Below are positions 4,351-62,619 of a stretch of DNA of 64,000 nt, piece by piece (position 1 is the first letter of the stretch; each line of letters starts with the position of its first letter). The stretch lies in the NCBI GenBank assembly GCA_902761575.1, contig CACWKU010000002.1:5578-69577 (forward strand), written 5' to 3'. A program made the translations under genes and the position numbers. The stretch is from an uncultured bacterium (GTDB taxonomy: Bacteria > Verrucomicrobiota > Kiritimatiellia > RFP12 > UBA3636). The notes under the pieces were generated by a model that was not told the DNA's origin, searched no databases, and was given only the letters and a program-made list of their open reading frames with translations.

Positions 4351-4443
4351 GGGAGGTTCTTTCGATGGTTGTGGCAAGACGGCGCCCAGTCTACGCCAAA
4401 CGCCGCCCAACGACCATCACCCGGAAGTATACGTCCCGGCGCG

Positions 4444-7416: not shown

Positions 7417-7514
7417 GGGTGGTCCTTTCATGTGTTGGGGAAAGACGCCGGCGAGTCTAGAGGAACCGCGGTCCACGGACAATCACCCGAAGGTATACGC
7501 CCGCCGCATGCACC

Positions 7515-12324: not shown

Positions 12325-12326
12325 GG

Positions 12327-21148: not shown

Positions 21149-22345
21149 ATGAAGAAAGTCCTCGTCGTCTCCTCGATCAACGGCATCGCCGGCCGCAACG
21201 GCCTCACCGGCATCTTCGACTTCGTCAACGAGGGCCACGACTGGAGCATCCGCTTCCTGCAGAATCCCGGCGATTCCGCCGACGGGATGCTGCCCGCGGC
21301 GCTCCGGGGCGGCGTGGACGGCGTTATCGTGAGCCCCCGCGCGATGACGCCGGGGATCCGCCGGCTGCTGGACCGGCCGGTCCCGGTCGTGATGGTCCAC
21401 AACCCGGGCGGCGGCGTCCCGCGGCACGGCCCCCGCTTCTCCCTCCTGAAGAACGACGACCGATCCGTGGGCCGGCTCGCCGCCGAATACCTGCTCTCGA
21501 AGTCCCGGTTCCGCTCCTACGCCTTCATTCCGACGCCCTCGCCGACGACCTGGTCGGACGAGCGGCTCGCCGGATTCGCCGAGGCCCTGTCCGCGAAGGG
21601 CATGGCGCCCGTCGTGTGGAGCGCCGAGCGGCAGCCGCTCGGGGACTTCCTCAAGTCGCTGCGCAAGCCCGCCGCCGTCCTGGGGGCGACGGACCTCGAA
21701 GCCATCGACGCGCTCGCCGCGTGCCGCCGGCTGCGCATCGACGTCCCCTCGCGCGTCGCCGTGATGGGCGTCGACAACGACGAGATGATGTGCGAGGCGA
21801 CGAAGCCGACGCTCTCGAGCGTCCGGACGGACGACGTCGCGCTCGGCCGCCGCGCCGCGGAGGAGCTGGCCTTCCTGATGTCGGCGAAGGGCCCCCTCCC
21901 GCCGCGCGAGGCGATCCTCGTCCCGCCCGCCGGGGTCTCGGAACGGAACTCGACGCGCACCGTCCCCCCGGCGGGGTATCTCATCCAGGAGGCGCTCTCG
22001 TTCGTCCGGCGCCACGTGAACGAGGGCATCGGCGTCGACGACGTCGTGCGGCACCTGCACGTCTCGCACTCGCTCGTCCGCGCCCGGTTCCGCGAGGTCT
22101 ACGGCAAGTCCCTCCGCGACGTGATCCTGGACCTGCGGATCCGGACGGCGGCGTCGATGCTGCTCCGGACGAAGGCGTCCGTCCACGCGATCGCGCGGAA
22201 AACCGGATTCGCCTCCGACGCCCATTTCGTCCGCCTCTTCCGGAAGAAGACGGGCTCGACCCCGTCCGACTACCGCGCCGCGGGACGCCGGTCCTCGCGC
22301 CGCCCCGCCGCGAGGGCCGGCTCCGGGAACCGCACGGAAGCGTAG
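21149..22345 (+). CDS. AraC/XylS-family transcriptional regulator with N-terminal periplasmic-binding-protein-like sugar-binding domain (XylR-like)
   Basis: N-terminal LacI/PBP-like region (VVMVHNPGG.., GATDLEAIDALAACRRLRIDVPSRVAVMGVDNDE) plus C-terminal AraC HTH (..LSFVRRHVNEGIGVDDVVRHLHVSHSLVRARFREVYGKSLRDVILDLRIRTAASMLL.. GFASDAHFVRLFRKKTGSTPSDYR). Confidence 0.85.
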   Translation: MKKVLVVSSINGIAGRNGLTGIFDFVNEGHDWSIRFLQNPGDSADGMLPAALRGGVDGVIVSPRAMTPGIRRLLDRPVPVVMVHNPGGGVPRHGPRFSLLKNDDRSVGRLAAEYLLSKSRFRSYAFIPTPSPTTWSDERLAGFAEALSAKGMAPVVWSAERQPLGDFLKSLRKPAAVLGATDLEAIDALAACRRLRIDVPSRVAVMGVDNDEMMCEATKPTLSSVRTDDVALGRRAAEELAFLMSAKGPLPPREAILVPPAGVSERNSTRTVPPAGYLIQEALSFVRRHVNEGIGVDDVVRHLHVSHSLVRARFREVYGKSLRDVILDLRIRTAASMLLRTKASVHAIARKTGFASDAHFVRLFRKKTGSTPSDYRAAGRRSSRRPAARAGSGNRTEA

Positions 22346-31727: not shown

Positions 31728-31876
31728 GGTCGAGTCCTTTCCTTGGGTTGTCGAACGACGCCGACCAGTCTAGAAAATCCGCCCTCCCCGGACAATCACT
31801 CCGAAGTATACCCTCCGATGTATACGAAGGTATAACGCCCGGGTCTGCGCCCCTCGCTCGCACCGCGGCGCGCGGG

Positions 31877-33726
31877 TCAGCCTTCGGCCGGATCTCGGGC
31901 GGCCTCCGACGCGAAGAACTGCGTCCAGCGGCCGTAGTAGTAGCCCATCAGGCCCGAGAGCTGGCGGTGGGCGTAGTCGTCGAGCGTGCGGCGCACGCCG
32001 GACGGTTCGACCCAGGTGGTGTACATGCGCTTCACGGCCTCGGGGCCGTGGTCCGGGTCCAGCTCGGCGGCGAGGCGCTCATAGCGGTCCAGCCGGAAGT
32101 ACGGCGACGCGGCGAGGACGCGGTCCATCTCGAGCATGCCGGCGAGGAACGCCGCGCGCGCCGCGGCGTCCGTGCGCAGCGACGGCAGCAGGTCGCGCGC
32201 GCGGTCGGAGAGGACCTGCCGGCGCAGGTCCGTGAGATCGTAGACGAAGGTCTCGACGCCGAGCAGCTCCGGCCGCTCTTTCGCGACGGCCTCCAGCAGG
32301 TCGCGCGCCCGCACGACGTCGGCGCGGTCGTAGTAGAAGCCGGTCTTCGGGCCCCAGGTCGACGCGCTCGCGACCTCCCACGCCGGGAACGCGCAGTACA
32401 CGCACTCGAGCGTGCCCTCCTGCCGCTGCGGGACGGAGTAGACGCTCCGCCGGAGCAGCCCGAGCGCCTCCACGAGGCGCGGGTCGTCCGTGCCCCAGCG
32501 GCGGCGCGCGTAGGCGGCGTCGGGCTCGGCGCGCCCGCCCGTGATGCGGCGCGTGAACGCCTCGTAGAACCACGGGTTCGTCTCCAGCCCCTCGGAGAGC
32601 AGCCCCCAGCCGTGGCCGTCCGGCGACCGCTCGACGACGCCGAGCCCGCCGTAGAGCCCGTGGTTGCCGCCGAAGTTCAGCAGCTCGCACCAGATCGCGG
32701 GGAGTTCGCCCCACGACCGCGCGCCCTCCTCGCCTCGGGCCATGTCGTAGACGAGGTTCTCGACGAGACTCAGCGCCGGATCGAGCCCGGCGACCATTTC
32801 GTCGGTCGGGTTCTTGCCCCACGCCTGCACCATCCATGTGGCGCCGGGCGAGGCCTTCTGCTGGGCCGCCTGGACGGCGCGGAACGCGGCCGTGACGTCG
32901 ACGCCCTCGCTGTTGCCGCCCTCGTGGAAGAGGTCGCCCGCGAAGGCCGCGGCGCGGTCGGTGCCGTAGACGCGGAAGAGGTTGCGGTACCAGATTTCGG
33001 CGAGGCGCGCGAAGGCCGGGTCGGTCGGGTCCATCACGACCGGGCGCTGCAGCCCGCCCCAGGTCCCCTGCTCGAAGAACCGGACGCCCCCGAGCCCGTA
33101 CCGCGCGGGGTCGCGCCCCATCGCGCTGGGGAGGAGACCCGTGAAGCCCTGCAGGACGGGCTCGATGCCCAGCGCCCGCATCTCGCGCACCAGGAAGCGC
33201 CCGAGCGCGGCATCGCGCTCGACGACCTCCTTCGGGACGGGGCCGCCCGTCCCCTCGAGGTTGCCCATCGCCCACCAGGCCGTGGCGGCGAGGTCGGGGA
33301 TGAACGCGCGGATCCCCGCCTCGTCCATGCCAAGTTCGCGCAGCACGAGCTGCCAGACCTTCGGGAGGCCCGCGATCACGAGCGCGCGGTTGAACCCGTA
33401 CAGCGCCAGGCGGTCGATCTCCTCGCGCCACCACGATTCGCCGCGGTAGCCCGCCGTGTAGCAGAGCGTGCAGTAGTTGTACGCGAGCGCGACCCGCACC
33501 AGCTCCAGTGCCCCTCCGCGACGTCACGCAGGTACGCGCCGAGCGCGAGCGCCTTGTCGCCCTCCGTCGGTCCGGCGACGACGATCCGCCCGCCGTCCGC
33601 GCGGTATGAGGCCGCCGGCGCGTCCTCGAACCGCAGCGCCGCGGCCCTCTTCTCCCCGAGCACGCGCCGAGCCAGCGCCTCCGCCGGCGCGGGCCCGTCT
33701 CCATTCGGTCTTTCCATGGCATTCAT
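31877..33726 (-). pseudogene. Alpha-N-acetylglucosaminidase (GH89/NAGLU-like) split by an apparent +/-1 frameshift between the N-terminal domain (33376..33726) and the TIM-barrel/C-terminal part (31877..33499)
   Basis: Frame A MNAMERPNGDGPAPAEALARRVLGEKRAAALRFE..GGRIVVAGPTEGDKALALGAYLRDVAEGHWSWCG resembles the NAGLU N-domain. Frame B ALAYNYCTLCYTAGYRGESWWREEIDRLALYGFNRALV..WWAMGN..HEGGNSEG..ELLNFGGNHGLYG resembles the GH89 TIM barrel. Both frames are open only in the 33376-33499 overlap. Confidence 0.5.
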
Positions 33727-33825: not shown

Positions 33826-36800
33826 CTACTCGTCGATCGTGCCGATGCCGACGGCGAAGAGATGCGGGTAGGGCTGGTCCAGGACGGCCGTGAGGATGCC
33901 GAGGGTGTCGAGCGATCCGTTGGTCAGGGTCGCGGGGAGGCGGAAGGCCGTGGCGTCGTCCAGGTTCTCCTTGCAGAGGAGCGCGACGACGACCTCGCCG
34001 CGGGCGTCGACCTTGCCGGCCCGGAAGCCGACCGTGAGCGTGTCGCCCGAAAGATCGATCGACGTGAACTCGACGTAGGTGTGGCCCTCGTAGTCGTCCA
34101 GCGCCTGGATGCCGCCGCCGTTCGGGCCCGGGATGTCCCAGGGGCGGGGCTGCGCGTCGGGGTCGAACTCGTAGCAGCCGATCGACGGCGTGTCCCAGAC
34201 GAAGTACTTGTCGTCGAGGTCCTTGCCGATGTACGCGTAGGTCGAGCCCGCCTCCTTCGCCGGAGAGCCCTCCAGTAGATGGTAGTCGCCGCTGGCGGCG
34301 TCGACGAACAGGGGGTCGCCGTAGAGGGAGTCCGGCGCCTGGTCCGCCTCCGACGCGAGCCCGAAGAAGCAGTTCCGGGAATTGACCGCGTCCTTCAGGA
34401 CGTCCGTGATCGAGTAGTTCGACTCGTTCGAGTTCATTTTGTTCCCGACCGCGATGGTGTTGATGATCGTGGCCTTCCCCGGGGTGAAGCCGGCCATGTG
34501 CTCGAAGCGGATTCCGCCCGCGTACAGGGTGCCCGTGTTGCCCGAGACCGTGCAGTTCCGGACGACGCACTCGTGGTTCGCCCCGCGGACGCCGATGCCG
34601 CCGCCGGACCCGTTGCCCACGATGCGGTTGTCGACGACGAGGCACGCGTCGACGAGCACGGGGCCCTCCGTGTCGACGGCCCCGATGCCGGCGCCGTAGA
34701 CGTTCTGGACCTGGGCCGAACGGTTCTCCGCGACGAGGCAGTGGTCGATCGTGCCCTGTCCGCCGGAGAAGGAGACGCCGCAGCCGTACATGTAGTGCGT
34801 GCTGCCGACGTTGTTGCTGATGCAGCACCACGAGATCGTACCGTTCCGAACCCACGCGCCGGCGCCGCCGAAGGTCTGCGTGCTGCCGCCGTTGATCCAC
34901 ACGCCGGTGTCGCCGGACTGCGCGTTCGCGTTGCCGCCCGTCAGGGTGAGTTTCGCGACCGTCGCGCCCTCGTCGACCATCGCCAGGCGGATGGCGGAGC
35001 CTGCGGCCGCACGGATGACCGTGTTCTCCCAGCCCTGGCCGACGAGCGTGACGCCGCCCGTCACATTGAGCTGCGCGTCGATGTAGAAGACGCCGTCGCC
35101 GAGCGTGACGGTGCCGGCGGGCGACTTGGCGGTACCGGCGGCCGCGGCGTCGATGAGGGCCTGGATCGTCCGCCGGTCCGTTTCTCCGGTCGCGTCCCCG
35201 CTGGGCGCGACCGGCTCAGTAGGGTCCGATCCCGTCTTGGGGAGCCTCACGGTCTTCGTCGCCGTCCCGGCGAACGGCGCGTTCGCGAACGTCGCGGTGT
35301 AGAGCCCCTCGCCGGCTTCGGTCTCGGTCGGCTCCCGGACGACCTCGTAGGCGGCCGTCACGGTCTCGTTCGTCACGTGCGAGGAGTCCGCCGTGCAGAC
35401 GGCGGTCGCCGTGCAGTCGTAGCCGGACGCCGTCATCGTCCACGCGTACGCCGGCGCGCCCCAGGTGTGGGCGTGGGGCGGGGGCGGCTCTCCGCCGCCG
35501 GCCTCGTAGCAGCCGATGGACGGCGGCACGGCGAAGGCCCTGCCGTCGAGGTCGACGCCCGCGCCGGAGCCGGCCGCGCCCGCCCCCTTCGCCGGGGAGT
35601 CTTCCTTCAGGCGGTAGTCGCCGTTCGCGGCGTCGGCGAATCCGGGGTCCCCGGAGAGGAAGCCCGCGAGATCGTGGTTCACGCCGCCGATGTTCACCGT
35701 CGTCTCGCTCGCGAGCCCGACGAAGCAGTTCTTCGAGCCCGTCGCGTCGAAGAACGAGTTGTTGGACCGCAGGTTGGATTCCGATTCGCCCAGCTTGTTC
35801 CCGACAAGGATGGTGTTGACGAGCACGAGCTTCCCGGGGCCGGTCGCCGACGCGAGGTCGAGGCCACCGGAGTTGGAGACCGCCTCGTTGCCGACGATCG
35901 TGCAGTTGCGGACGGTGCAGTCGCCTTCGAGGTTCTTCACGCACAGGCCGCCGCCCGATCCGCCGCCGGTCGTGATGGCGTTGCCCGCGACGAGGCACGC
36001 GTCGATCGTCACGGCGCCCTTCGTGTCGTTGACGGCGATGCCCGCGCCGAAGCCGCCCTGGAGGCCGCTCGCCGATGCGTTGTTGGCGACGATGGAGTGG
36101 TCGATCGAGCCCTGTCCGCCGGCGAAGGAGACGCCGTAGCCAGAGTTGGCGTGGTTCTTGCTGACGTTGTTGGTGACGCAGCACCAGGAGACGGTGCCGT
36201 CCTTGACCAGTACGCCGGCGCCGTTCTCGGACTGGGCCTTGATGGCGCCGCCCGTCAGGGCCACGCCCTCGATCTTCGCTCCGCCGTCCAGCATCGCGCA
36301 GCGCTGGGCGGTCCAGGAAGACTCGTTCACCACGCGCTTGACGACGGTGTTCGTCCAGCCCTGGCCGGCGAGCGTGACGCCGTTCGTGACATTGAGCTGC
36401 GCGTTGACGTAGAACGTGCCGGCGGAGAGCGTGACGGTGCCCGCGGGGCTCTTGGCGGCCGCGGCGTCGATCAGGTCCTGGATCATCTTCGCGTCGGTGA
36501 TGCCGGACTGGTCGCCGCTGGGCTGCCCGTTGACGATCTCGGGACCGACCGCGGCGGCGGCGAAATCGTCCACGTAGTCCCAGACGATGTCGTTGTAGTT
36601 GTAGCTGCCCGTTCCCGGCGACGCGTTCTGCTGGAAGGTGTGGCCGCGCGTGGCGAGCGTATGGAGCTCGCTCTCGAGCCCCATCGCGTGCAGCTTCTCC
36701 CAGCACTTGACCGAGTTCATGGCCGCATAGCTGTCGGCATCGCCGTGCAGGAAGAACATCTTGCAGGTCTTCGCATCGAACGCGAAGTCGTCGACCAGGA

Positions 36801-38231
36801 CGTCCGTGTCGAGATTGCCGCCGTTCGCGTTCGTGCCATCGGCTCCGTCGGTGAGCGCGTAGGCGGGATAGAACGCGATCGCCCACTTGACGTTGCAGGG
36901 CTGGTCGTCGATGTCGTCGATCCGCGCGTACGCCGGCGTGAGCGAGGTCGTCGCGCCCATCAGCGTCAGGTGGCCGGCCGCCGAACCGCCCATGATGCCG
37001 ATGCTGTCCGGATCGAGCCCGCGGCTCGGCGCCTCCGCGCGGACGAGGCGGATGGCGCGCTGGAGGTCCTGCCACGCCGACATGTGCTTGGCGAGGTTCG
37101 CGGGGCGGGGCGTGCGGTACTTGAGCGCGACGACAGCCATGCCCTTCTCGTTGAGGTAGCGACGCGTGGGGACGACCTCGAAGCCGTCGTGGTTGTTGAA
37201 GCCGTAGGCGCCGCCCGCGTAGATGATCTGGATCGCCCGCGTCTTGAGCTCCTTCGGGAGGTGCCATTCGATAAAGGGAACGACCTGGTCCGCGCTGAAG
37301 TCGGGCGTCTGGCCGTCGGGCCAGATGTTCTCCTTGATGTAGGTCGCGCGGTCCTCGTCGGACGCCCAGCGGTCGAACGCGGCCACCTCCGCACCGAGCG
37401 CGCCGAGAAATCCCATCTGGCACATGAACTCGATGGCGCGCCCGAACTCGGAAGCGGTCGCAGGGGCGTGTCCGCGTCCGGGGACGAGGTGGATTTCGGA
37501 GGGAACCTTCGCCCCGTTCGAAACCGTCATCGTACGGAGCTTCCGGTAGATGCGCGTCATCGCGATGGGAGACGTTACATCGTCGTCCTGGCCGTGGAAG
37601 AGGCACATGGTGCAGGTCTTGTTGTCGAACGCGAAGACCGTGTCGATCGCCGTGTCGCTCGTGAGCACGCGCGTCGGGGACATCGGGATCGCGAAGTTGA
37701 CGTTGCAGGCGAGGTCGTCGACGTCGTCGACCTTCGCGTACGCGGCGGTCTGCGAGCTGGTCGCGAGGAGGAGCGCGAGGTGCGCGCCGTCCGCGAAGCC
37801 CATGACGCCGATCTTGTCCGCGCTGTAGCCGCGCTCCGCGGCGGCCTGGCGCACGAGGCGCACGGCGCGCTGGGCGTCCTCCAGGGCCGGCTTGTAGACG
37901 GGAAGACCGGCCGCGCTCGGACGATGGCGGAGCCACACGCACGCGACGCCGTTCGCGAGGAGCTTCGCCTCGAGCGGTTGCAGCGCGGCGCCGTCGCCGA
38001 CGCTGGCGTAGTCGGAACCGGGGAGGATGATCACGCACGCGCCCGTGGGGGCGGCGGGCGCGTCGGACCATTCGAGGTACGGCGCCGCGACGCCGGCCTG
38101 CGCGTCGGGCATCCCGCCCTCCGGCCAGAGGGTCTGCGTGGTGCTTGCGGCGCCGGCGAGCGGCAGCAGGGCCGCGAGGGCGGCGATGAATCCGGCGAGG
38201 ATGATTTTCCTCCGATGGATGGTGTTCGACA
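33826..38231 (-). CDS. Secreted protein with two tandem alpha/beta-hydrolase (esterase-like) domains followed by two tandem right-handed beta-helix domains. Tail ..HLFAVGIGTIDE
   Basis: ATG start MSNTIHRRKIILAGFIAALAALLPLAGAAS (revcomp 38229-38231). Two homologous blocks with ..VIILPGSDYAS..WLRHRP..GVMGFADGAHLAL.. and ..IIYAGGAYGF..ALKYRTPRP..GIMGGSAAGHLTL... Two blocks with ..TLSAGTFYVNAQLNVTNGVTLAGQGWTNTV.. and ..TLGDGVFYIDAQLNVTGGVTLVGQGWENTV..; PPSIGCYE twice. Confidence 0.8.
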
Positions 38232-38429
38232 TGGCGTTTTTCTCCTGGTGCGTCGCCGTCGGGCGCATTCCCTCGGCGACGGCGACCATACTAGCACGCG
38301 CCGTCTTCCGTCCGAAACTACACAACCGTGTAGCACCCGTTTTCCGGCCCGCGAAGCGCCCCCGGAAGCGAGGCTCCGCCGCCCCTCGCGGCATCCGTGC
38401 GCGTGGCGGGGTGAGACACTCCTCCACGA

Positions 38430-38456
38430 AAAATGTCGCCTGCCAGGCGACATTTT
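38430..38456. repeat. 27-bp perfect palindrome AAAATGTCGCCTG-C-CAGGCGACATTTT in the divergent intergenic region, ~92 nt upstream of the RhuM ATG
   Basis: Both 13-nt arms are exact reverse complements; A/T-rich ends. Confidence 0.8.
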
Positions 38457-38547
38457 CCCCGGGGCGTTGTGGCAGTCTATCCCCCGTTCCGCGGGAACAT
38501 CCCGCGATACATCCCCAAACCACCCCCCAAGCAGAAAGGATTCCCCA

Positions 38548-39030
38548 ATGCCAGAGCCCAATGGTTGTGAACCGGAAGAAGTCTCGCCGCCGCAAAAGAA
38601 CGAGATCGTCGTCTACCAGCCGGACGAAACGCTCCGGCTTGACGTTCGTCTCGAAAACGAGACGGTCTGGCTGACGCAGAGCCAGATGGGAACGTTGTTC
38701 GGATGCACCACGAGAAACGTGCGCCTCCACCTGGAAAACATCTACGCATGCGGCGAGTTGACGCCCGAGGCAACTAGGAAGGATTTCTTCCTGGTTCGCC
38801 AGGAAGGCGTCCGGCAAGTCCGAAGGATGGTGACGTGCTACAACCTCGACGCCATCATTTCCGTCGGCTACCGCGTGAATTCCGTGCTTGGAGTCCGGTT
38901 CCGCCAGTGGGCGACGACCGTTCTGAAGGAATACCTGATCGGCGCCTCCCTCAAGGACCTCGGCAAGAAGTGCTTCGGCTTCACAAAAATGGATCCCGCG
39001 GAAATCCCGGGCCTGAAGGCGCGGCTCTGA
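38548..39030 (+). CDS. RhuM-family protein (virulence RhuM family, commonly in mobile/defense islands)
   Basis: 160 aa; RBS AAAGGA then ATG 38548. ..ETVWLTQSQMGTLFGCTTRNVRLHLENIYACGEL..VRRMVTCYNLDAIISVGYRVNSVLGVRFRQWATTVLKEYLI closely follows the conserved RhuM core (..ETVWLSQ..M..LF..HYNLDAIISVGYRV.S..G.QFRQWAT.VLKEY). Confidence 0.8.
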   Translation: MPEPNGCEPEEVSPPQKNEIVVYQPDETLRLDVRLENETVWLTQSQMGTLFGCTTRNVRLHLENIYACGELTPEATRKDFFLVRQEGVRQVRRMVTCYNLDAIISVGYRVNSVLGVRFRQWATTVLKEYLIGASLKDLGKKCFGFTKMDPAEIPGLKARL

Positions 39031-39080
39031 CGCCCCTCGCCGGGCATTCGCCGTTTTGCATCTTCCGATCCCGGCCGCCG

Positions 39081-39149
39081 GGCGACTTGCCGACTTGCCG
39101 ACCCGTCGACTTGGTCCAAGTCGTCAAGTTGACTGGTTGCCAAGTCGCC
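39081..39149. repeat. Array of CGACTTG(C/G) / CAAGTCG motifs: tandem direct repeat, 17-bp palindrome, 11-bp palindrome and outer inverted repeat
   Basis: cgacttgc at 39083-39090 and 39091-39098; cgacttgg-t-ccaagtcg at 39107-39123; gtcaa-g-ttgac at 39123-39133; ggcgacttgcc at 39081-39091 versus gccaagtcgcc at 39139-39149. Confidence 0.7.
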
Positions 39150-54008: not shown

Positions 54009-56927
54009 TCAGCGGAGGATGAGGAGCGTCGGGAGGATGCCGGCGGATTCGTAGCAGCCGATGTCGATCGTCCGGACGACGCGGGGGTTGCCCGCGAGGT
54101 CGAGGTCGACGGGCGACGCCATCTCCGAGCCGGCGTCGACGGTCGGGGAGGTCTCGACCGGACGGAAGCCCTTCCGGACCCTGGTGGCCCCGGCGACCAT
54201 CTCGAGTCCGTCCGGAAGCTCCGAATCCGCCGCGCAGGTCACGAAGCTCGCGTAGGCGCCGGGCAGGCGGTCGGCATAGGTTTCCGTCCAGTCGTCGGCG
54301 AAGAGCTTCCGTCCGCTCGCCGTCCCCGTGTTGCGGTGGAAGAGCGTGTTGCGGACGACCGGATTCTGGTTCGCGGCGGCCGCGGGGAAGAACAGCACGG
54401 GATAGAAGTTCCCCTGGTTTCCGAGCCCGCGGTTCTCGGCGAGGGTGCAGTTCTCCATCAGCGTGCCGGCGCCGCCGAGGAAGACGGCCGAGCCGACGGA
54501 GTCGTTCGTCGTCGCGTTGTAGGCGACGAGCGACTGGCGGAGGATGCCGCCCGCCATGTGGACGGCCGCGGCGCCGCCCCAGGTCCCCAGCTTGACGGAC
54601 CGGTCCTCCGCGACGTCGCTCCAGTTGCGGGTCGCGAAGTTGTTCGTGATCACGCAGTGCGTGACGAGCCCCTTCGCGGACAGGCACGCGATGCCGGCGC
54701 CGCTGGACTGCGTCTTCGGCCAGCCGCCGCCGAAGGCGAACATCGCCGCGTTGCGGACGATGCAGTTCTCCACGGTGCCGCCGTTCGCCTCGATGAGGAT
54801 GTTGCCGCCCTTCTCGTCCTTGTAGCCGCCAATCCGGCCGCGTTCGACGGCGAGGCCGGAGAGGACCGCGCCCTCGTTGTCGAGCACGAAGACGCGGTGG
54901 GCGTCGACGGCGGCGGAATTGCCGGCGTTCAGCGTCTCGGGCCCCGCCACGTTGCGCACGACGACGTCCTCGGGGTTGCCCGTGTCGCCGGCGATCTTGA
55001 CCGCCTTGTCCACGACGACGGCCTCGGAGACCGCGTACAGGCCCGGCAGCACGCAGATGCCGTCGCCGTCCTCCGCGACGTCCACGGCGTGCGCGATCGT
55101 CGCGAACGGGGCCTCGCGCGTGGTGCCGGCGTTGGCGTCGCTGCCCGACGGGGAGACGTACCAGTCGAACGAATCGGCTACGGACTTGGTCGTGAAGGAG
55201 CCCGACATCGTCACGCTCTGCGGGACCTGCGCGTCGTTTTCGACCCGGAGCGCCCAGTAGTACTTCGTCGAGGCCGTCAGGTTGGTGATCTCGAAGGAGA
55301 AGCCGGTCGCCGCGCCCGCGACGACGAGCGCCGGCGTGCCGATGCGATTCTCCCGCCTGTTGTACGCGAAATAGACGTCGCAGGACGTGGCGAGGTTGTT
55401 GCCGACGTCGAAGATCGTGCCGGAGATCGTCGCCGTCGTCGTGCCGGGCGCCACCGCCACCGGGTCGAGATCCGGCGCCGTGGGGGGGCCGCGCCAGTAG
55501 GTCGCGGCGACGATTCCGCTCGGCTCCCGGCCCTCCTTGAAGGCGCGGGCCTTGAACGTCGTCGTGGCGGTGAGGGCGATCGGCTCCACATAGGCGGCGC
55601 TCGACTCCGTCGGCTCGGTGCCATCGGTCGTGTAGCGGATCGTCGCGCCGTCCGTCGTGCACGAGAGCTCCACGGAGACGCCCGGGTAGAACATCGTGCC
55701 CGGGGCCGGGGAGAACGCGGGGTCGTCCGCCGGGCCGGGCTCGTCGGGGTCGTATTCGCAGCAGCCGATGTCGACCGCGGCGCCGACGACGCGCGGGTTG
55801 CCGGCGAGGTCGAGCCCGACGGGGGACTGCATCCCGGCGCCCGCGTCGACGACCGAGGAGCCCGGGGCCGGGCGATAGACCTTGCGGAACCGGAAGCCCG
55901 AGTCCACCATCGCGAGGCCGTCCGGGAGGTCCGAATCCGTCGCGCAGTGGTCGAACCGCCCGTAGGCGTTCGCCAGGGCGGCGGCGGGAAAGCCCGCGAC
56001 CCAGGCGTCGGCGAAGAGCTTGCGGCTGCCCGCGGTCCCGACGTTCCCGTAGATGAGCGTGTTGCGGACGATCGGGTCCATGGCCACGACGTTCTGCGCC
56101 GCGAAGAACACGGGATAGAAGTCGCCCGCGTCGCCGAGCCCGCGGTTTTCGAAGACGGTGCAGTTCTCCATCAGCGTGCCGCCGTTGCAAAGGAACACGG
56201 CCGAGCCGTAGGCGTCGTTCGTCGTCGTGTTGTACGCGACGAGCGACTGGCGCAGGACGCCGCCCGCCATGTGGACGCCCGCCGCGCCGCCCTGCTGCCA
56301 GAAGTTGAAGCCGAGCCCGCAGCGGGTCGCGAAGTTGTTCGTGACGACGCAGTGCGTAACGAGGCCGTTCGGGGAGAGGCAGGCGATGCCCGCGCCGCCG
56401 CTGGCGGTCTTCGGGTATCCGCCGGCGCCGATGGAGAAGATCGCCGCGTTGCGGAGGATGCAGTTCGTCACCGTGCCGCCCTTCGCGTCGATCAGGACGT
56501 TTCCGCCCGTGCTGTCGCGCAGGCCGCCGATGCGGCCGCGCTCGGCGGTGAGGCTGGAGAGGACCGCGCCGGCGTTGTCGAGGACGAAGACGCGGTGGGC
56601 GCCGACGGACGGGGAGGCGGTCGCGTCCAGCGTCTCGGGACCTTTCGTGTTGCGGACGACGACGTCGGCCGGGTCGCCCGTGTCTCCGACGACGGCCACC
56701 GCGTTGGTCACGGCGACCGCCGCGGAGACCGCGTAGGTGCCGGCGAGCACGCGGACCGTGTCGCCGTCCTGCGCGGCGTCCACGGCGCGGGCGATCGTCG
56801 CGAACGCGGTCGCGCGCGTCCGGCCGTCGGCAGCATCGCTGCCCGCCGTGGAGACGTACCAGTCGGCCGCGGGGGCGGCCGCGGCGGCAAGGGCGAGCGT
56901 TGCGATCAGGTTCCTGGCGGCGTTCAT
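54009..56927 (-). CDS. Secreted protein made of two tandem copies of a beta-helix plus chitobiase-C/Fn3 unit (internal tandem duplication). Tail ..AGILPTLLILR
   Basis: MNAARNLIATLALAAAAAPAADWYVSTAGSDAADG.. signal. Second copy begins ..FDWYVSPSGSDANAGT... The two halves are colinear at protein level and alignable by eye at DNA level; (V)DIGC(C)YE ends both copies. Confidence 0.85.
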   Translation of the reverse strand: MNAARNLIATLALAAAAAPAADWYVSTAGSDAADGRTRATAFATIARAVDAAQDGDTVRVLAGTYAVSAAVAVTNAVAVVGDTGDPADVVVRNTKGPETLDATASPSVGAHRVFVLDNAGAVLSSLTAERGRIGGLRDSTGGNVLIDAKGGTVTNCILRNAAIFSIGAGGYPKTASGGAGIACLSPNGLVTHCVVTNNFATRCGLGFNFWQQGGAAGVHMAGGVLRQSLVAYNTTTNDAYGSAVFLCNGGTLMENCTVFENRGLGDAGDFYPVFFAAQNVVAMDPIVRNTLIYGNVGTAGSRKLFADAWVAGFPAAALANAYGRFDHCATDSDLPDGLAMVDSGFRFRKVYRPAPGSSVVDAGAGMQSPVGLDLAGNPRVVGAAVDIGCCEYDPDEPGPADDPAFSPAPGTMFYPGVSVELSCTTDGATIRYTTDGTEPTESSAAYVEPIALTATTTFKARAFKEGREPSGIVAATYWRGPPTAPDLDPVAVAPGTTTATISGTIFDVGNNLATSCDVYFAYNRRENRIGTPALVVAGAATGFSFEITNLTASTKYYWALRVENDAQVPQSVTMSGSFTTKSVADSFDWYVSPSGSDANAGTTREAPFATIAHAVDVAEDGDGICVLPGLYAVSEAVVVDKAVKIAGDTGNPEDVVVRNVAGPETLNAGNSAAVDAHRVFVLDNEGAVLSGLAVERGRIGGYKDEKGGNILIEANGGTVENCIVRNAAMFAFGGGWPKTQSSGAGIACLSAKGLVTHCVITNNFATRNWSDVAEDRSVKLGTWGGAAAVHMAGGILRQSLVAYNATTNDSVGSAVFLGGAGTLMENCTLAENRGLGNQGNFYPVLFFPAAAANQNPVVRNTLFHRNTGTASGRKLFADDWTETYADRLPGAYASFVTCAADSELPDGLEMVAGATRVRKGFRPVETSPTVDAGSEMASPVDLDLAGNPRVVRTIDIGCYESAGILPTLLILR

Positions 56928-57001
56928 CGTGTGTTCCTCGTGGGCGGTGGTGGGAAACGGCTACGGGGCGAATCCTACCACGCGCGGGAACGCGCCGGAA
57001 A

Positions 57002-57047
57002 CTACACAACCGTGTAGTGGCCCGTTCCCGGCCGGTTCTGCTAGAAT
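57002..57047. promoter_or_regulatory. Divergent promoter region with the 16-bp palindrome CTACACAACCGTGTAG (57002-57017) and extended -10-like TGCTAGAAT (57039-57047) only 7 nt before the kinase ATG
   Basis: The same palindrome plus flank (CCGAAACTACACAACCGTGTAG..CCCGTT..CCGGCC) recurs at 38311-38350 upstream of the 33826-38231 gene. The CTGCTAGAATCG 12-mer recurs at 22362-22373. Confidence 0.5.
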
Positions 57048-57054
57048 CGTCCGC

Positions 57055-59154
57055 ATGAAACGCTTCCTGGTCCCGCTGCTCCTGCCGTGCGCGCTGGCGT
57101 CCGCCGCGCCGGACGGCGTCCTGCGCACGGCGCGGGAGGTCAACGAGTTCCTCGAGCGCGGGCACGGGAAGACGAACTACGTGCTCTCGGTCCAGGTCAT
57201 CAACGACCCGGCGGACACCGCGATGATCGTCCGCGACGAGACGGGCCGGACCGCCGTGCCGAACCAGAATCCGGTGGCGGGCCTCCGCAAGGGCGACCTG
57301 CTGGAGATCCGCGGCTTCGCCTCCGTCAACGAGAACGGCGAGACCTGGATCCAGCCGATGGAGGTGGAGAAGCGCGGGAGCGCGCCCGCGCCGGGGCCGG
57401 CCGACATGGGCCTCGCCGAGCTGAACAGCCCGGAGAACGCCTGGCTCCCGGTACGCGTCTCGGGCACGGTCTTCAGCGTCACGCCCGACGAGTTCGACGA
57501 CGATTTCGTCGTCGCGATGCTCTGCGACGGCGAGGCGACGACGCCCGTCGTCCTGTCGCGCAAAGTCTACGAGCGATCGAAGGTCGAGCCCGACGCGACG
57601 ATCCGCCTGACGGGGTGGTACTGGCGGTCGTTCAGCGGCATCCGGAAGTTCACGGGCCCCGGCGTCGTCCACGACCCGGCGACGCCGGTCGAGATCCTCT
57701 CGCCCCCGCCGGCCGACCCGTTCGCGGCGCCGCCGCTCGAGCGGCGCTTCTACCGCACGCCGGAGGAGATCGCGCGGATGGGCCCCCGGACGGTCGCCGG
57801 CCGCGTGATCGCCGTCTGGGGCGAGGGGAACCTGATGGCGAAGGACGCGGACAACCGCGTCGTCAACGTCACGATGATGGAGGGACAGCCGGTCCCGCGC
57901 CTGGGCGAGGCCGGCACGTTCGTCGGGTATCCCTACACGGACCTGATGCGCGTCAACCTGATGCGGGCGCGCTTCCGGCCCGGCGACTTCCCGGAGACGC
58001 CCGAGGACGCCCCGGAGGACGTCTCGGCGCAGGAGCTGCTCGCCGGAAACCTGCTCACGACGAACGACATCTGGCTCGTCACCTGCCACGGAAGGCTGCT
58101 CCGCCTGCGCGGGACCGTCCGCAGCCTGCCGGCGGAGGAGAGCCCCGACCAGCGCCTGTACCTCGACTGCGACGGTCGTCCGGTGCCCGTCGACATCGGC
58201 TCCTGCCGGGAGGTCGCGAGGCGGACGCCCGTCGGCGCCGAGGTCGAGGCGACCGGGCGGTGCCTGCTCGAGACGGACAGCTGGCGCACGGACAACGTCT
58301 TCCCCCACGTCCGCGGGTTCGCGCTCGTCGCGCGCACCGCCGAGGACGTCCGCGTGACGAAGCGCCCCTCGTGGTGGACGCCGAAGCGGCTGGCGCGCGT
58401 CGTCGGGCTTTCGCTGGCGGGGCTCGTCGTCGCGCTCGCCTGGATCGTCGCGCTCCTCCGGCTCGCCGAACGCCGCGGTCGGGCGCTCTACCGGTCGCGG
58501 CAGACGGAGGACGCGGAGCGCCACGCGCGCGAGATCGCCGAACTGCGGATGCGGGACCGCACGCGCCTCGCCGTCGAGCTGCACGACACGATCTCGCAGA
58601 ACCTCACCGGCGCGACGATGCAGATCGGCACCGCCGCGCAATTCGTCGGGACCGACGCCGCGCGGGCGGTCCGCCACATCGACATCGCCACGCGCACGCT
58701 CGACGCCTGCCGCGAGGAGCTGCGCAACTGCATCTGGGACCTCCGGAGCAACACGCTCGACGAGAAGGACCTCGCCGCGGCGGTCCGTCGGACCGTCCAG
58801 CGGCTCGTCGGCGACGCCCGCCTGGACATCCGGTTCGACGCGCCCCGGGAGAAGATCTCGGACAACGCGGTCCACGCGCTGCTCAACATCGTGCGCGAGC
58901 TCGCGGCCAACGCCGTCCGCCACGGCGGCGCCTCGGTCGTCCGCGTCTCCGGCTCGCTCGAGGACGGAATGCTCTCCTGCGCGGTCGAGGACGACGGCTT
59001 CGGGTTCGACCCCGACGACCGCCCCGGCCTCGCCGAAGGGCACTTCGGGCTCCAGGGGGTCGAGGAGCGCGTCGACGAGCTCGGCGGCGAGCTCTCGATC
59101 CGGAGCCGGAAGGGCGAGGGGACCCGGGTGAGCTTCCGGATCCGGGCCGAATGA
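57055..59154 (+). CDS. Sensor histidine kinase (HisKA_3/NarX-DegS type) with large periplasmic sensor domain and one TM helix
   Basis: ATG 57055; signal/TM MKRFLVPLLLPCALASA; TM LARVVGLSLAGLVVALAWIVALL; H-box ..RTRLAVELHDTISQNL..; HATPase ..IVRELAANAVRHGGAS..VEDDGFGFDP..GLQGVEERV..GG. Confidence 0.85.
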   Translation: MKRFLVPLLLPCALASAAPDGVLRTAREVNEFLERGHGKTNYVLSVQVINDPADTAMIVRDETGRTAVPNQNPVAGLRKGDLLEIRGFASVNENGETWIQPMEVEKRGSAPAPGPADMGLAELNSPENAWLPVRVSGTVFSVTPDEFDDDFVVAMLCDGEATTPVVLSRKVYERSKVEPDATIRLTGWYWRSFSGIRKFTGPGVVHDPATPVEILSPPPADPFAAPPLERRFYRTPEEIARMGPRTVAGRVIAVWGEGNLMAKDADNRVVNVTMMEGQPVPRLGEAGTFVGYPYTDLMRVNLMRARFRPGDFPETPEDAPEDVSAQELLAGNLLTTNDIWLVTCHGRLLRLRGTVRSLPAEESPDQRLYLDCDGRPVPVDIGSCREVARRTPVGAEVEATGRCLLETDSWRTDNVFPHVRGFALVARTAEDVRVTKRPSWWTPKRLARVVGLSLAGLVVALAWIVALLRLAERRGRALYRSRQTEDAERHAREIAELRMRDRTRLAVELHDTISQNLTGATMQIGTAAQFVGTDAARAVRHIDIATRTLDACREELRNCIWDLRSNTLDEKDLAAAVRRTVQRLVGDARLDIRFDAPREKISDNAVHALLNIVRELAANAVRHGGASVVRVSGSLEDGMLSCAVEDDGFGFDPDDRPGLAEGHFGLQGVEERVDELGGELSIRSRKGEGTRVSFRIRAE

Positions 59155-59179: not shown

Positions 59180-59800
59180 ATGGAGAAGACCAAGGTGCTG
59201 GTCGTCGACGACCACGCGATCGTCCGGATGGGGATAGTCGCGCTGCTGAACGCGCAGCCGAACCTGGAGGTGGTCGGCGAGGCCAAGAACGGCGAGCTCG
59301 GCGTCAAGGCCGCGAACAAGCTGAGGCCCGACGTCGTCGTGATGGACATCCTGATGCCCGTGATGGACGGCGTCGAGGCGACCCGCCAGATCGTCGCCTC
59401 GCGGCCCGGGGCGAAGGTGCTGGTCCTCACCACCTCGACCACGGCCAGCGAGCTGGCGGCGGCGCTCGAGGCCGGCGCGACCGGCGTCATCCCCAAGACG
59501 ACGGGCAACGCGGCGCTCCTCGCCGCCGTCCGTTCCGTCGCCGCGGGAAGGCGCGTGGTGACGAGCGAGATCGAGGAGATCATCGCGAGCGACGAGCCCG
59601 CGCCGAACCTGACGCAGCACCAGCTCGACATGCTCGCGTCGATCGTCCGCGGCCTCACGAACGCGGACATCGCCCTGCAGTTCGGCATCTCGGAGAACAC
59701 CGTCCGCAAGGCGACCTCGACCATCTTCGCGAAGCTCGGCGTCGCCAACCGCACCGAGGCGACCGCGATGGCCCTTCGCAAGGGCCTCGTGAAGCTCTGA
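59180..59800 (+). CDS. LuxR/NarL-family response regulator
   Basis: Receiver VLVVDDHAIVRMGIVALL..DVVVMDILMP; C-terminal LuxR HTH LTQHQLDMLASIVRGLTNADIALQFGISENTVRKATSTIFAKLGVANRTEA. Confidence 0.9.
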   Translation: MEKTKVLVVDDHAIVRMGIVALLNAQPNLEVVGEAKNGELGVKAANKLRPDVVVMDILMPVMDGVEATRQIVASRPGAKVLVLTTSTTASELAAALEAGATGVIPKTTGNAALLAAVRSVAAGRRVVTSEIEEIIASDEPAPNLTQHQLDMLASIVRGLTNADIALQFGISENTVRKATSTIFAKLGVANRTEATAMALRKGLVKL

Positions 59801-59866
59801 GCGCGCGGACCATCACCCGTCCGTATAGTTGCCAGAAAGACCGGAATCGGGTAGAACAGGGACCGT

Positions 59867-62002
59867 ATGCAACGCGTTCTCCCGCTTCTTCTGGCGCTCG
59901 CTCTCCTCGTTCCGGCCGCCGCCCCGGCCGACGAGGCGGCCGGCGGGGCCGTCCTTCGCTCCATCGCGGAGATCGACGCCTTCACCGCGGACGCCACGCC
60001 CCGCAAGGTCCCCTTCGAGGTGACGGGAAGGGTCGTCGGGGCCTTCGTTCTGCCGAAGGCGGCCGAAGTCGTCCTTTCCGACGATTCCGGCACGCGCATG
60101 TCCTTCTACCGGGACCTCGGCCTGCCGCGGCCGGAGCCGGGCGAAACGATTGCGGCGAGCGGCGTCGCCAACATGAGCGCGGAACACGAGCCGTACGTCC
60201 TCCTCGAGGACTACCGCGTCCTCGGGCGCGGCCCGCGCCCCGAGCCCGTCGCCGTGCGGCTTCCGGCGTTGAACGCCCGCGAGCACAACCTAGCGGTCGT
60301 CCGGACGGAGGGCACCGTGGCCGACGCCTTCCCGGACGAGGTCGACCGCCGGTACACGATCCTGCTTCTCGAGGACGGGGGCGTCGTCGTCCCCGTCTCG
60401 TTCCCGCGGGACGCCTTCGGCGACCGGCGGGACCTCGTCGACGCGCGGATCCGCGTGACCGGCGTCTATCGCCGGAACGTCGAGGGCGTCCGCAAGTACT
60501 CCTGGCCGAACATCGCCCCGTCCGCGCCGGAGGACATCGAGGTCCTCGAGCCGCCGCCGGCGGATCCGTTCTCCGCCCCGCCCCTGGAGAGCCGCCTCTA
60601 CCTCACGTCCGGCGAGATCGCGCGGATGTCGCGGCGGTCCGTCTCCGGCGAGGTGCTCGCGACCTGGTCGGGCGACCGGGCGATGCTGCGGACCGCGGAC
60701 GGGCGGATCGTCAACCTCACCCTCGCGCACGGCGTCGCGCTCCCGCCGTGCGGCGAAACGGTCGTCGCCGCCGGCCGACCCGAGACGGACCTCTTCCGCA
60801 TCAACCTCGCGGCCGCGCGCTGGAAGGCCGCCGCGCCGCGGCCGCCGGCGGCGGACGAGGAGGCGGCGGACGCCGCGGCCGCGTTCTGGGACGACGAGGG
60901 GCTGCACTCCATCAACGCGCAGATCCACGGGACGCTCGTGCGCGCTCGCGGCGTCGTCCGGACCCTGCCGTCCCCCGGCGACCCGGACCTGCGCTTCGTG
61001 CTCGACGCCGGCGACGCGTCGATCCCCGTGGACGTGACCTCCAACCCCGGCATCGCCGACGGTCTCCGGATCGGCAGCGAGGTCCAGGCCACCGGCCGGT
61101 GCATCCTGCTCACGGATCCCGGGCGGCGGGACTACGACTCGGCGAAGGTCCACGGCGTCGCGCTCGTCCTCCGCTCGCCCGCCGACCTGGTCGTGCTGCG
61201 GCGCGCGCCGTGGTGGACCTCTGGCCGGCTGATGGCGGTGATCGCCGTGATGCTGGCCGTGATCGCCGGCGGCCTCGTCTGGAACCGCGCCCTGCGGAAC
61301 CTCGCGGACCGCCGCGGACGCGAGCTCTACCGCGAGCAGGTCGCCCACGCCGTCGCGGAGTTCAAGACCGACGAGCGCACGCGCCTCGCCGTCGAGCTTC
61401 ACGACTCGCTCTCGCAGGCGCTCTCCGGCGTCGCCTGCCACCTGGCGGTCGGCGCAGGGTCCTTCGAGGCCGACCCCGCGGCCGCCGTGCGCTGCCTCGA
61501 GACCGCGCGCAAGATGCTCGACTCCTGCCGCACGGAGCTGCGCCAGTGCCTCTTCGACCTGCGCAGCGACACCCTGGAGGAGCGCGACTTCGCCGTCGCG
61601 ATCCGCAAGACGCTCGAGCAGCTCGACGACTACGCCGAGCTGGCGATCCGGTGCGACGTCCCCCGCCAGATCCTCCGGGACACCACCGCGCACGCCATCC
61701 TCTCCATCCTCCGCGAGCTGACCGGCAACGCCATCCGCCACGGCGGCGCCACCCGGATCGAGGTCGAGGGCTCCGTCGAGCCGGACCGCATCGTCTTCAC
61801 GGTCCGCGACAACGGCTCCGGCTTCGATCCGGCGGCCTGCGTCGGCCCCGCGCAGGGCCACTTCGGCCTCGAGGGCGTCCGCAACCGCCTCGCGAAGCTC
61901 AACGGCGTCTTCACGATCGAATCGGCGCCCGGCGCCGGGGCGACCGCCGTCGTGACCATCCCCCTTCCCGCCGCCCGGGCGCAGGAGACCCCGCAACCAT
62001 GA
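59867..62002 (+). CDS. Sensor histidine kinase, paralog of the 57055-59154 kinase (same architecture)
   Basis: MQRVLPLLLALALLVPAAAPA signal; TM LMAVIAVMLAVIAGGLVW; ..RTRLAVELHDSLSQAL..; ..ILRELTGNAIRHGGAT..VRDNGSGFDP... The periplasmic region is colinear with the first kinase (..PPPADPFSAPPLE..). Confidence 0.85.
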   Translation: MQRVLPLLLALALLVPAAAPADEAAGGAVLRSIAEIDAFTADATPRKVPFEVTGRVVGAFVLPKAAEVVLSDDSGTRMSFYRDLGLPRPEPGETIAASGVANMSAEHEPYVLLEDYRVLGRGPRPEPVAVRLPALNAREHNLAVVRTEGTVADAFPDEVDRRYTILLLEDGGVVVPVSFPRDAFGDRRDLVDARIRVTGVYRRNVEGVRKYSWPNIAPSAPEDIEVLEPPPADPFSAPPLESRLYLTSGEIARMSRRSVSGEVLATWSGDRAMLRTADGRIVNLTLAHGVALPPCGETVVAAGRPETDLFRINLAAARWKAAAPRPPAADEEAADAAAAFWDDEGLHSINAQIHGTLVRARGVVRTLPSPGDPDLRFVLDAGDASIPVDVTSNPGIADGLRIGSEVQATGRCILLTDPGRRDYDSAKVHGVALVLRSPADLVVLRRAPWWTSGRLMAVIAVMLAVIAGGLVWNRALRNLADRRGRELYREQVAHAVAEFKTDERTRLAVELHDSLSQALSGVACHLAVGAGSFEADPAAAVRCLETARKMLDSCRTELRQCLFDLRSDTLEERDFAVAIRKTLEQLDDYAELAIRCDVPRQILRDTTAHAILSILRELTGNAIRHGGATRIEVEGSVEPDRIVFTVRDNGSGFDPAACVGPAQGHFGLEGVRNRLAKLNGVFTIESAPGAGATAVVTIPLPAARAQETPQP

Positions 62003-62619
62003 GCAAGATCCGAATCCTTCTCGCCGACGACCACATGCTGATGCGCATGGGCATCGCGACCCTCGTCTCGACCGCCAAGGACATGACGGTCGTCGGCGAG
62101 GCCTGCAACGGCCGCCAGGCCGTCGAGCTCGCCGGCTCGCTCCGGCCCGACGTCGTCATCATGGACCTGATGATGCCCGAGATGTCCGGCGGGGAGGCGA
62201 CGAAGGCCATCCACGCGGCGCACCCCGGGATCAAGATCGTGATCCTCACCACCTACGGCACGTCGGCGGAGCTGGCGACGGCCGTCACGAACGGCGCCGT
62301 CGGCGTCCTGCTGAAGGACAAGGTGGAGATGGACCTGCTGAACACCATCCGCTTCGTCGTCGAGGGCAACCAGGTGATCCCCACCCGGCTGCTCGCGCAG
62401 ATCGAGGAGGACAAGGCGATGGGCAAGCTCACGGACCGCCAGATGGAGATCCTGGCCTCCGTCGCGGAAGGCCAGTCCAACGCCGACATCGCCCTGCAGT
62501 TCGGCCTCTCGGAGATCACCGTGAAGAAGCACCTCTCCGCGATCTTCGAGCGCCTCGGCGTCGCCAACCGCTCCGAGGCGGTCGCCCTCGCCTTCCGCAA
62601 GCAGATGCTCAAGGCCTGA
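61999..62619 (+). CDS. LuxR/NarL-family response regulator, paralog of the 59180-59800 regulator
   Basis: ATG overlaps the kinase stop (ATGA). ILLADDHMLMRMGIATLV..DVVIMDLMMP; LTDRQMEILASVAEGQSNADIALQFGLSEITVKKHLSAIFERLGVANRSEA. Confidence 0.9.
   Translation: MSKIRILLADDHMLMRMGIATLVSTAKDMTVVGEACNGRQAVELAGSLRPDVVIMDLMMPEMSGGEATKAIHAAHPGIKIVILTTYGTSAELATAVTNGAVGVLLKDKVEMDLLNTIRFVVEGNQVIPTRLLAQIEEDKAMGKLTDRQMEILASVAEGQSNADIALQFGLSEITVKKHLSAIFERLGVANRSEAVALAFRKQMLKA

Follow-up and report, generated by a model that had tools for sequence, protein, structure and literature searches.

An inverted repeat between secreted-enzyme genes and a two-component system of an uncultured Kiritimatiellae bacterium, a probable operator of a NarL/LuxR-type regulator

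The locus and its palindrome

The window, that is the whole stretch of 64,000 nucleotides (64 kb) analysed on contig CACWKU010000002.1 of an uncultured bacterium of the Kiritimatiellia, carries genes for secreted enzymes beside two paralogous two-component systems. Two promoters of these enzyme genes share a 16-bp palindrome, CTACACAACCGTGTAG, a perfect 6-4-6 inverted repeat. Comparison with other genomes argues that this palindrome is a real and well-conserved cis-regulatory site with a well-supported candidate regulator. The genes and the two copies of the site are the following:

33826..38232, minus strand: first target gene, secreted protein of 1468 amino acids with two BD-FAE esterase and two beta-helix (DUF5123/pectate-lyase-like) domains (Pfam/NCBIfam)
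31877..33499, minus strand: alpha-N-acetylglucosaminidase (NAGLU), directly downstream of the first target gene
54009..56927, minus strand: second target gene, secreted beta-helix protein of 972 amino acids (Beta_helix, DUF1565, CHB_HEX_C_1)
57055..59154, plus strand: first sensor histidine kinase (Pfam HisKA_3 and HATPase_c)
59180..59800, plus strand: first response regulator, NarL/FixJ family (Pfam Response_reg and GerE, a LuxR helix-turn-helix), the proposed binder of the palindrome
59867..62002, plus strand: second kinase, a paralog of the first
61999..62619, plus strand: second, paralogous regulator, also weighed as binder
38318..38333, no strand assigned: palindrome copy 1, CTACAC-AACC-GTGTAG
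57002..57017, no strand assigned: palindrome copy 2, extended by a flanking A/T to the 7-4-7 repeat ACTACAC-N4-GTGTAGT

The NAGLU gene is probably co-transcribed with the first target gene; in a genome of the Tb.RUG.298 type it possesses its own palindrome copy.

The initial annotation had described a perfect 6-4-6 palindrome common to two promoters, and two exact copies were indeed present in the window (plus strand, 38318-38333 and 57002-57017), compared with a mean of 0.05 matches in 100 dinucleotide-preserving shuffles of the window; three or more matches were obtained in none of the 100. Allowing up to three mismatches to the 16-bp sequence added a single match, which was intragenic. Perfect 6-4-6 palindromes located 22-27 nt upstream of a TAnnnT hexamer occurred in the window solely at the three promoter sides of the two copies. 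The block common to both copies comprised 20 nt, GAAACTACACAACCGTGTAG (38314-38333 and 56998-57017). A longer string of 40 nt had been reported for both sites; beyond the 20 identical nucleotides the agreement was approximate and needed small indels: in copy 2, CCGGAAAC stands where CCGAAAC was expected, and the gaps preceding CCCGTT and CCGGCC are unequal (2 versus 3 nt; TT versus CC). Minor corrections concern the palindrome coordinates, which were off by 1-2 nt, and the span of the first beta-helix gene, given as 33826-38231 and in fact 33826-38232. The start codon is 85 nt away from copy 1 (ATG at 38232) and 74 nt away from copy 2 (ATG at 56927).

Minus-strand alignment of the two upstream regions limited their likeness to approximately 60 nt, from about 16 nt upstream of the palindrome to just beyond the -10 hexamer. 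The right flank of copy 1, CCCGTT..CCGGCC, spans the junction of a 15.7-kb insertion and is probably a vestige or a coincidence outside the site. This insertion ends 9 nt from copy 1 and left the module from palindrome to ATG whole. Within the left end of the inserted island, a hairpin between A and T runs, aaaaatgtcgcc-tgcc-aggcgacatttt (38431-38458), was observed upstream of a RhuM fragment; it was not called by the terminator scan.

Promoter architecture

Read on the gene strand, copy 1 consists of CTACACGGTTGTGTAG followed after 24 nt by TAGTAT (38288-38293), and copy 2 of the same CTACACGGTTGTGTAG followed after 24 nt by TAGGAT (56972-56977). The initial annotation had placed these -10-like hexamers at about 24 nt; the distance is exactly 24 nt in both copies. 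Both enzyme-gene hexamers are preceded by TGn and thus form extended -10 elements. As had been stated, the divergent region that holds copy 2 also serves the first histidine kinase gene (ATG at 57055); the copy is equidistant, at 24 nt, from two divergent -10 hexamers and symmetric relative to both promoters. Three promoter elements belong to the two copies:

38288..38296, minus strand: extended -10 TGcTAGTAT of the first target gene, 24 nt downstream of copy 1, without -35 consensus
56972..56980, minus strand: extended -10 TGgTAGGAT of the second target gene, 24 nt from copy 2, without -35 consensus
57039..57047, plus strand: extended -10 TGcTAGAAT of the kinase operon, 24 nt from copy 2 and followed after 7 nt by ATG

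A consensus scan of both promoter regions yielded no full sigma-70 promoter and no -35 element going with these hexamers. The palindrome had been said to overlap the -35 position; it rather abuts it, extending from about -52 to -37 if the hexamer is taken as -12 to -7. Class II activator sites are centred near -41.5 or -42.5, have a weak or absent -35 and keep a fixed phase to the -10; here a -35 is absent and the spacing is fixed at 24 nt (34 nt once, in L041), but the centre would lie at -44.5 or -45.5 relative to the predicted starts.

The first kinase operon is probably transcribed into a leaderless mRNA, since the -10 hexamer ends only 7 nt before the ATG at 57055 and a Shine-Dalgarno sequence is missing. 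The same order of hexamer, 6-7 nt and ATG without Shine-Dalgarno sequence was seen in every kinase ortholog examined (loci L002, L014 and L039-L042 of our collection from public genomes and metagenomes). An equivalent arrangement precedes NAGLU in L025 (site at 8767), with TATAAT 23 nt from the site and the ATG 6 nt further on. At the 5' end of the predicted mRNA of the first target gene, a hairpin GTCGCCGTCG-N14-CGACGGCGAC was noticed on the minus strand (38251-38286). It folds at -20.5 kcal/mol (z = -2.7), is conserved in orthologs, where changes in L033 are compensated or give G-U pairs, and may be an mRNA-stabilising or regulatory leader.

Conservation beside kinase orthologs

Loci were fetched by exact protein sequences of homologs of the first kinase without consulting the motif. 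These homologs comprised orthologs with 58-98 % identity, two proteins with 46 % (P0019, P0020) and a paralog family with 34-43 %. CTACAC-N4-GTGTAG was found without arm mismatch in all four of the following loci, each time between a secreted-enzyme gene and the kinase/regulator operon:

L039: kinase identity 77 %, centre AAGT, 24 nt to the -10 on the enzyme side and 24 nt on the kinase side
L040: kinase identity 65 %, centre AATC, 24 nt on the enzyme side and 25 nt on the kinase side
L041: kinase identity 58 %, centre ACCT, 24 nt on the enzyme side and 34 nt on the kinase side (one more helical turn)
L042: kinase identity 46 %, centre GTTT, 24 nt on the enzyme side and 23 nt on the kinase side

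The spacers and flanks are unrelated in sequence among the four genomes. Two extra copies were located upstream of neighbouring enzyme genes, one of them (L039-6852) with a single mismatch in the promoter-distal arm. All four loci lack the second kinase/regulator pair and retain the palindrome; the first regulator is the sole DNA-binding gene that adjoins the site at every locus.

Copies retrieved by motif

The 18-mer was searched in one genome per species (185,579 species) without demanding a -10 element. Seven loci were obtained, five of which, with eight sites, originated from three rumen genome bins of the Kiritimatiellae type. Two of the seven were chance matches (Chitinophagales, Firmicutes); L001 and L004 were put aside as AT-rich sequences of unrelated organisms without conserved context. 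On the enzyme side of seven of the eight sites, TAnnAT stands at a distance of exactly 24 nt and is followed, 50-70 nt later, by a gene with a signal peptide; in the distant bin Tb.RUG.298 the hexamer at 24 nt is a perfect TATAAT. At the eighth site (L006-1494) the enzyme side is disrupted, and TAGAAT at 24 nt was kept on the kinase side alone; the enzyme-side promoter has been swapped for unrelated sequence. A further rearranged divergent promoter was observed in L015 (1710-2233), where two copies are separated by 508 nt and each is accompanied by an N-terminal kinase gene fragment. The rearrangements in L015 and L006 are either assembly artefacts or real local duplications.

A metagenome scan with free centre revealed about 15 further Kiritimatiellae-like loci, and the fetched loci were then searched for copies with at most one arm mismatch, which added more sites and new centres. 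Low-GC matches in AT-rich, unrelated organisms without conserved context were rejected (L008, L010, L011, L013, L017, L020, L023, L024, L026-L029, L032, L035 and L038). The collection amounts to 63 non-redundant promoter sides. On 39 of them TAnnAT is present within 20-36 nt; hexamer positions were tallied as 33 at 24 nt, eight at 22-27 nt and one at 34 nt, a distribution to be read with the fact that part of the sites was retrieved by a pattern demanding perfect arms and a -10 element. Two more promoter sides have TATACT at 24 nt. For the rumen Kiritimatiellae, identical arms were counted on about 30 non-redundant promoter sides, where the -10 is mostly 24 nt away (22-25 nt, in one case 34 nt).

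Arms were perfect in the motif-retrieved sites and centres varied (GGTT, GCTT, AGGT, ACTT, GATT, AAAC, GACT, AACT). Where a site is divergent, an adjoining A and T lengthen it to a 7-4-7 repeat. Such invariant arms around a free centre fit a dimeric protein that reads only the arms, and conserved inverted half-sites with at least eight different centres are the pattern expected of a NarL/FixJ operator. Copies with one or two arm mismatches were sought in the window and the first 23 high-GC loci, which gave solely intragenic chance matches with two mismatches. Downstream of the sites are encoded NAGLU, a smaller beta-helix protein, or proteins orthologous or paralogous to the two window targets; a copy precedes orthologs of the first target gene in L005, L007, L012, L014, L018, L030, L033, L034, L036 and L039. 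The initial annotation had raised the question of positional bias: in these public genome and metagenome loci every retained copy lies upstream of a gene. One site that had appeared to lie between convergent genes (L009-10137/L025-6786) is located 23 nt upstream of TACACT and a gene for a beta-helix protein of 407 amino acids.

Regulator specificity and a second motif

The first regulator combines a receiver with a GerE domain and is encoded beside its cognate HisKA_3 kinase, as expected if the palindrome is a NarL/FixJ operator. Its closest solved homologs are LiaR/VraR, DevR and NarL (LiaR/VraR entries 5hev and 4gvp with E-values of 7e-38 to 3e-34). The recognition-helix segment ENTVRKATS is identical in seven of seven orthologs of the first regulator; at the same positions paralogous regulators have KKHLS, KDHLT or REHVA. 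No CTACAC palindrome was present in seven loci of the paralog family or in L047 (kinase P0019, 46 %). In several of these loci other repeats occupied the corresponding place:

L047: CTACCC-N4-GGATAG, 24 nt to TATAAT, helix PNTVKKHLE
L049: GTATAC-N4-GTATAC, 27 nt to the -10, helix EIMVKKHLS
L048: GTATAC-N4-GGATAG, 27 nt to the -10, helix EPGVKKHLK
L045: CACCCTA-N6-TAGGGTG, 22 nt to the -10, helix EFTVREHVA

The occurrence of the palindrome together with the regulator gene across genomes and a change of specificity linked to the helix are likewise characters of a NarL/FixJ operator. A sequence shared by L043 and L046 was considered as operator and discarded, as it represents the ribosome-binding site and start region.

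GTATAC occurs four times in the window, always between genes. A shared motif includes three of these hexamers, and the fourth stands 8 nt away from one of the three:

4411-4432, 7477-7498 and 31790-31835: motif GTATAC-N4-GGGTGATKGTCC, upstream of the exoprotein genes 1894-4410, 4444-7482 and 26490-31727

The site upstream of 26490-31727 additionally has TTATAC-N4-GTATAC, and a variant of the motif in opposite orientation (59806-59827) precedes the second kinase gene. The second two-component pair probably uses this motif as its operator; the helix of the second window regulator nearly equals that of the L049 regulator, whose locus has GTATAC-N4-GTATAC. The window thus appears to hold two regulons, with the CTACAC palindrome belonging to the first pair. 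The second regulator (61999-62619) is probably not the binder of the palindrome: several loci with the site lack its pair, and it probably has its own, different motif.

The input domain of the first kinase (residues 20-465, 57112-58449) had no Pfam match. Its structure was modelled with a predicted local distance difference test score (pLDDT) of 89 as four tandem OB folds, a predicted periplasmic sensor, which in the PDB matched solely tandem-OB proteins (HIN domains, RPA, LEF-3). This architecture is common to at least 46 kinase clusters (34-98 % identity), the second window kinase included.

Proposed regulation and alternatives

The palindrome, (A)CTACAC-N4-GTGTAG(T), is in our judgement likely to be the operator of the two-component system of the first NarL/LuxR-type regulator, which would activate its own genes together with a few genes for secreted sugar-degrading enzymes; this two-component system is conserved in Kiritimatiellae of the rumen type. 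The suggestion of a transcription-factor site made in the initial annotation is strengthened by the arms being invariant across genomes, by the fixed spacing to the -10 and by the presence of the site in four of four kinase-retrieved loci. The adjacent LuxR-type regulators had been named as candidate binders; the comparison speaks for this and narrows the choice to the product of 59180-59800, always encoded beside the site.

A phosphorylated dimer of the first regulator would bind both arms, the 4-bp centre not being read. The site is 24 bp upstream of a TG-extended -10 that lacks a -35, so that its centre would be at about -44.5, abutting the -35 position, and the dimer may recruit or position RNA polymerase in the manner of a class II activator. 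At copy 2, one dimer would drive the leaderless kinase/regulator operon as well as the second beta-helix gene; activation in both directions and positive autoregulation are proposed because the dimer would be symmetric to both divergent promoters. At copy 1, it would drive the esterase/beta-helix gene and probably also the downstream NAGLU gene. The regulon may consist of a few secreted esterases, beta-helix enzymes and a GH89-type glycosidase directed at an acetylated glycan. The signal would be sensed in the periplasm by the four-OB-fold domain of the kinase and is probably a glycan fragment. The analysis shows the sequence of the site, its geometry, its conservation and its linkage to the two-component system. 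The binding protein, the transcription starts and the signal are what we infer from these comparisons, and so is activation rather than repression, for which the reasons are the lack of a -35 and a distance that is fixed and in helical phase.

Several points weigh against this interpretation. Its support is comparative throughout. The presumed centre at -44.5 or -45.5 lies 2-3 bp upstream of the classical class II position at -41.5 or -42.5, and a site placed there could repress or act through another factor. A separate regulator controlling both the two-component system and the enzymes would yield the same linkage. Many of the sites are orthologous, so their counts are not independent, and the scans covered loci rather than complete genomes, which bears on the size of the regulon and on the frequency of intragenic copies. 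Finally, an unrelated lineage has the same arms at 24 nt from TAGTAT, in L019, L031 and L037 (GC content 0.56-0.60; type IX secretion system (T9SS)-type C-terminal domains), where tblastn detected no homolog of the first kinase or regulator; these loci are handled as a separate case. In L019 the sequence CTACAC(C/T)TTTGTGTAG was observed twice, about 770 nt apart (10111-10126 and 10882-10897), and 1.1 kb from the site a LuxR-type helix-turn-helix protein without receiver domain is encoded (11993-13168).

The palindrome might instead be the operator of a repressor or of a transcription factor encoded elsewhere, with the adjacent regulator as a target and not the binder; we consider this unlikely. 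Palindromic operators are typical of repressors as well, and the binder was assigned by sequence comparison. Repressors usually bind across the -10, the -35 or the start, whereas a site fixed 24 nt upstream of the -10 with no -35 fits an activator better. The wider cluster does encode an additional candidate:

21149-22345: AraC-type regulator with a periplasmic-binding-protein-like domain

It is 16-36 kb from the sites in the window and present in L039 and L040, but missing from L041 and L042; among DNA-binding genes the first regulator alone adjoins the site at every locus. AraC-type proteins moreover usually bind direct repeats, and regulator helix and operator change together among the paralogs, which again speaks against a factor encoded elsewhere.

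It is very improbable that the copies are alike through duplication of a promoter together with paralogous genes, or through the spread of a small repeat, and that the palindrome has no function. The 60-nt likeness of the two window promoters and the rearranged or duplicated copies of L015 and L006-1494 would agree with such an origin, but perfect arms with unrelated centres, spacers and flanks were found beside kinase orthologs down to 46 % identity in genomes with a GC content of 0.59-0.68. Neutral remnants would not hold 12 of 12 arm positions and an exact distance of 24 nt. Of copies with a single arm mismatch, the first 23 high-GC loci had none and the loci fetched later one (L039-6852). 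A dispersed repeat of the REP or MITE kind would show longer conserved units with terminal repeats, spread independently of promoters; just 16-20 nt are shared across genomes, and every copy stands upstream of a gene in promoter geometry.

Hardly any weight is given to an alternative sigma-factor element or an RNA hairpin acting as terminator or leader: GAAAC-N19/20-CGTT on the plus strand loosely resembles extracytoplasmic function (ECF)-type -35/-10 pairs and a transcript of the palindrome could form a hairpin of 6 bp with a 4-nt loop, but the ECF-like pair has the wrong spacing and a CGTT flank that is not conserved in other genomes, the 24 nt from arm to hexamer are too long for a sigma-70 or ECF hexamer pair (15-18 nt), the -10 elements are of the housekeeping type and include a perfect TATAAT, two-fold symmetry and bidirectional use argue for a dimer, and no sigma gene is linked, while the palindrome is upstream of both predicted starts, hence outside the transcript, has no T-tract, and gave no terminator in a scan of both promoter regions and nothing relevant in an Rfam search of the copy-1 region (38000-39600).

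Comparison with known regulatory systems

Regulators of the LuxR/TraR type perform class II activation from a palindromic box near -42.5, and the lux box is located between divergent units. The proposed system resembles them in a helix-turn-helix dimer on an inverted repeat that replaces the -35 at a fixed distance to the -10. LuxR and TraR differ in sensing an autoinducer, in the lack of a receiver domain and in a box of 18-20 bp centred 2-3 bp nearer to the start. The regulators of polysaccharide utilization loci of Bacteroidota (hybrid two-component systems, SusR, ECF sigma/anti-sigma pairs) are similar in having a glycan-sensing membrane sensor beside the controlled enzymes and in the expansion of the family into many paralogs with one locus each. 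In contrast to these, the system in the window consists of two proteins with a NarL-type instead of an AraC-type output, lacks SusC/SusD genes and has four tandem OB folds in place of a beta-propeller/Y_Y_Y sensor.

Within the NarL/FixJ family, SsrB of the Salmonella pathogenicity island SPI-2 binds an 18-bp 7-4-7 palindrome with degenerate 4-bp spacer, which is present also at its own operon (PMC2837388). The likeness includes the GerE-type response regulator, the inverted heptamers, the position upstream of the own operon and of genes for secreted proteins, and a site recognised by interspecies conservation amid drifting flanks (PMC2837388). One heptamer can be enough for SsrB, whose sites are degenerate and have no strict spacing to the start (PMC2837388), whereas the arms described here are essentially invariant and stand 24 nt from the -10; sequence, organism, sensor and regulon are unrelated. 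LiaR recognises T(X)4C(X)4G(X)4A, and its recognition helix contacts the inner C and G, 4 bp apart (PMC4482077). LiaR and VraR, besides being the closest solved homologs, are encoded in autoregulated kinase/regulator operons, and the innermost CAC-N4-GTG of the palindrome has the same spacing. According to the alignment, the LiaR contact residues K174, K177 and T178 would correspond to N, R and K in the first regulator. The LiaR sites differ in their position at about -120 to -77, in extended secondary sites and in tetramerisation (PMC4482077), in contrast to a single compact site beside the -35. Binding of inverted repeats with a 4-bp centre by SsrB and LiaR supports a NarL/FixJ regulator as the binder of the palindrome.

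Implications

The Kiritimatiellota are abundant and mostly uncultured polysaccharide degraders of the rumen and of marine sediments. A literature search revealed nothing on promoters or transcription-factor sites of this phylum; kinases and regulators near glycoside hydrolases of Pontiella were noted in one paper. The present comparison yields an operator sequence with its probable regulator, a small regulon and a promoter architecture in which the -10 is extended, a -35 is missing and the kinase mRNA is probably leaderless. With it, sets of enzymes under common control can be outlined in metagenome-assembled genomes. A NarL-family dimer acting from an inverted repeat by the -35 is a textbook mechanism; the gain concerns annotation and prediction rather than a new concept.

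A wider reading, to which we give slightly less than an even chance, is a regulatory code specific to the Kiritimatiellota: an expanded two-component family would fill the role of the hybrid systems of Bacteroidota, with an undescribed four-OB sensor and with an own repeat for each paralog. Its elements would be leaderless, self-activated operons and inverted repeats at a fixed 22-27 bp from the -10 of enzyme genes, and the window already appears to contain two such regulons, CTACAC-N4-GTGTAG for the first pair and the GTATAC-containing motif for the second. If this is true, the glycan regulons of an uncultured rumen lineage would be predictable from sequence alone.
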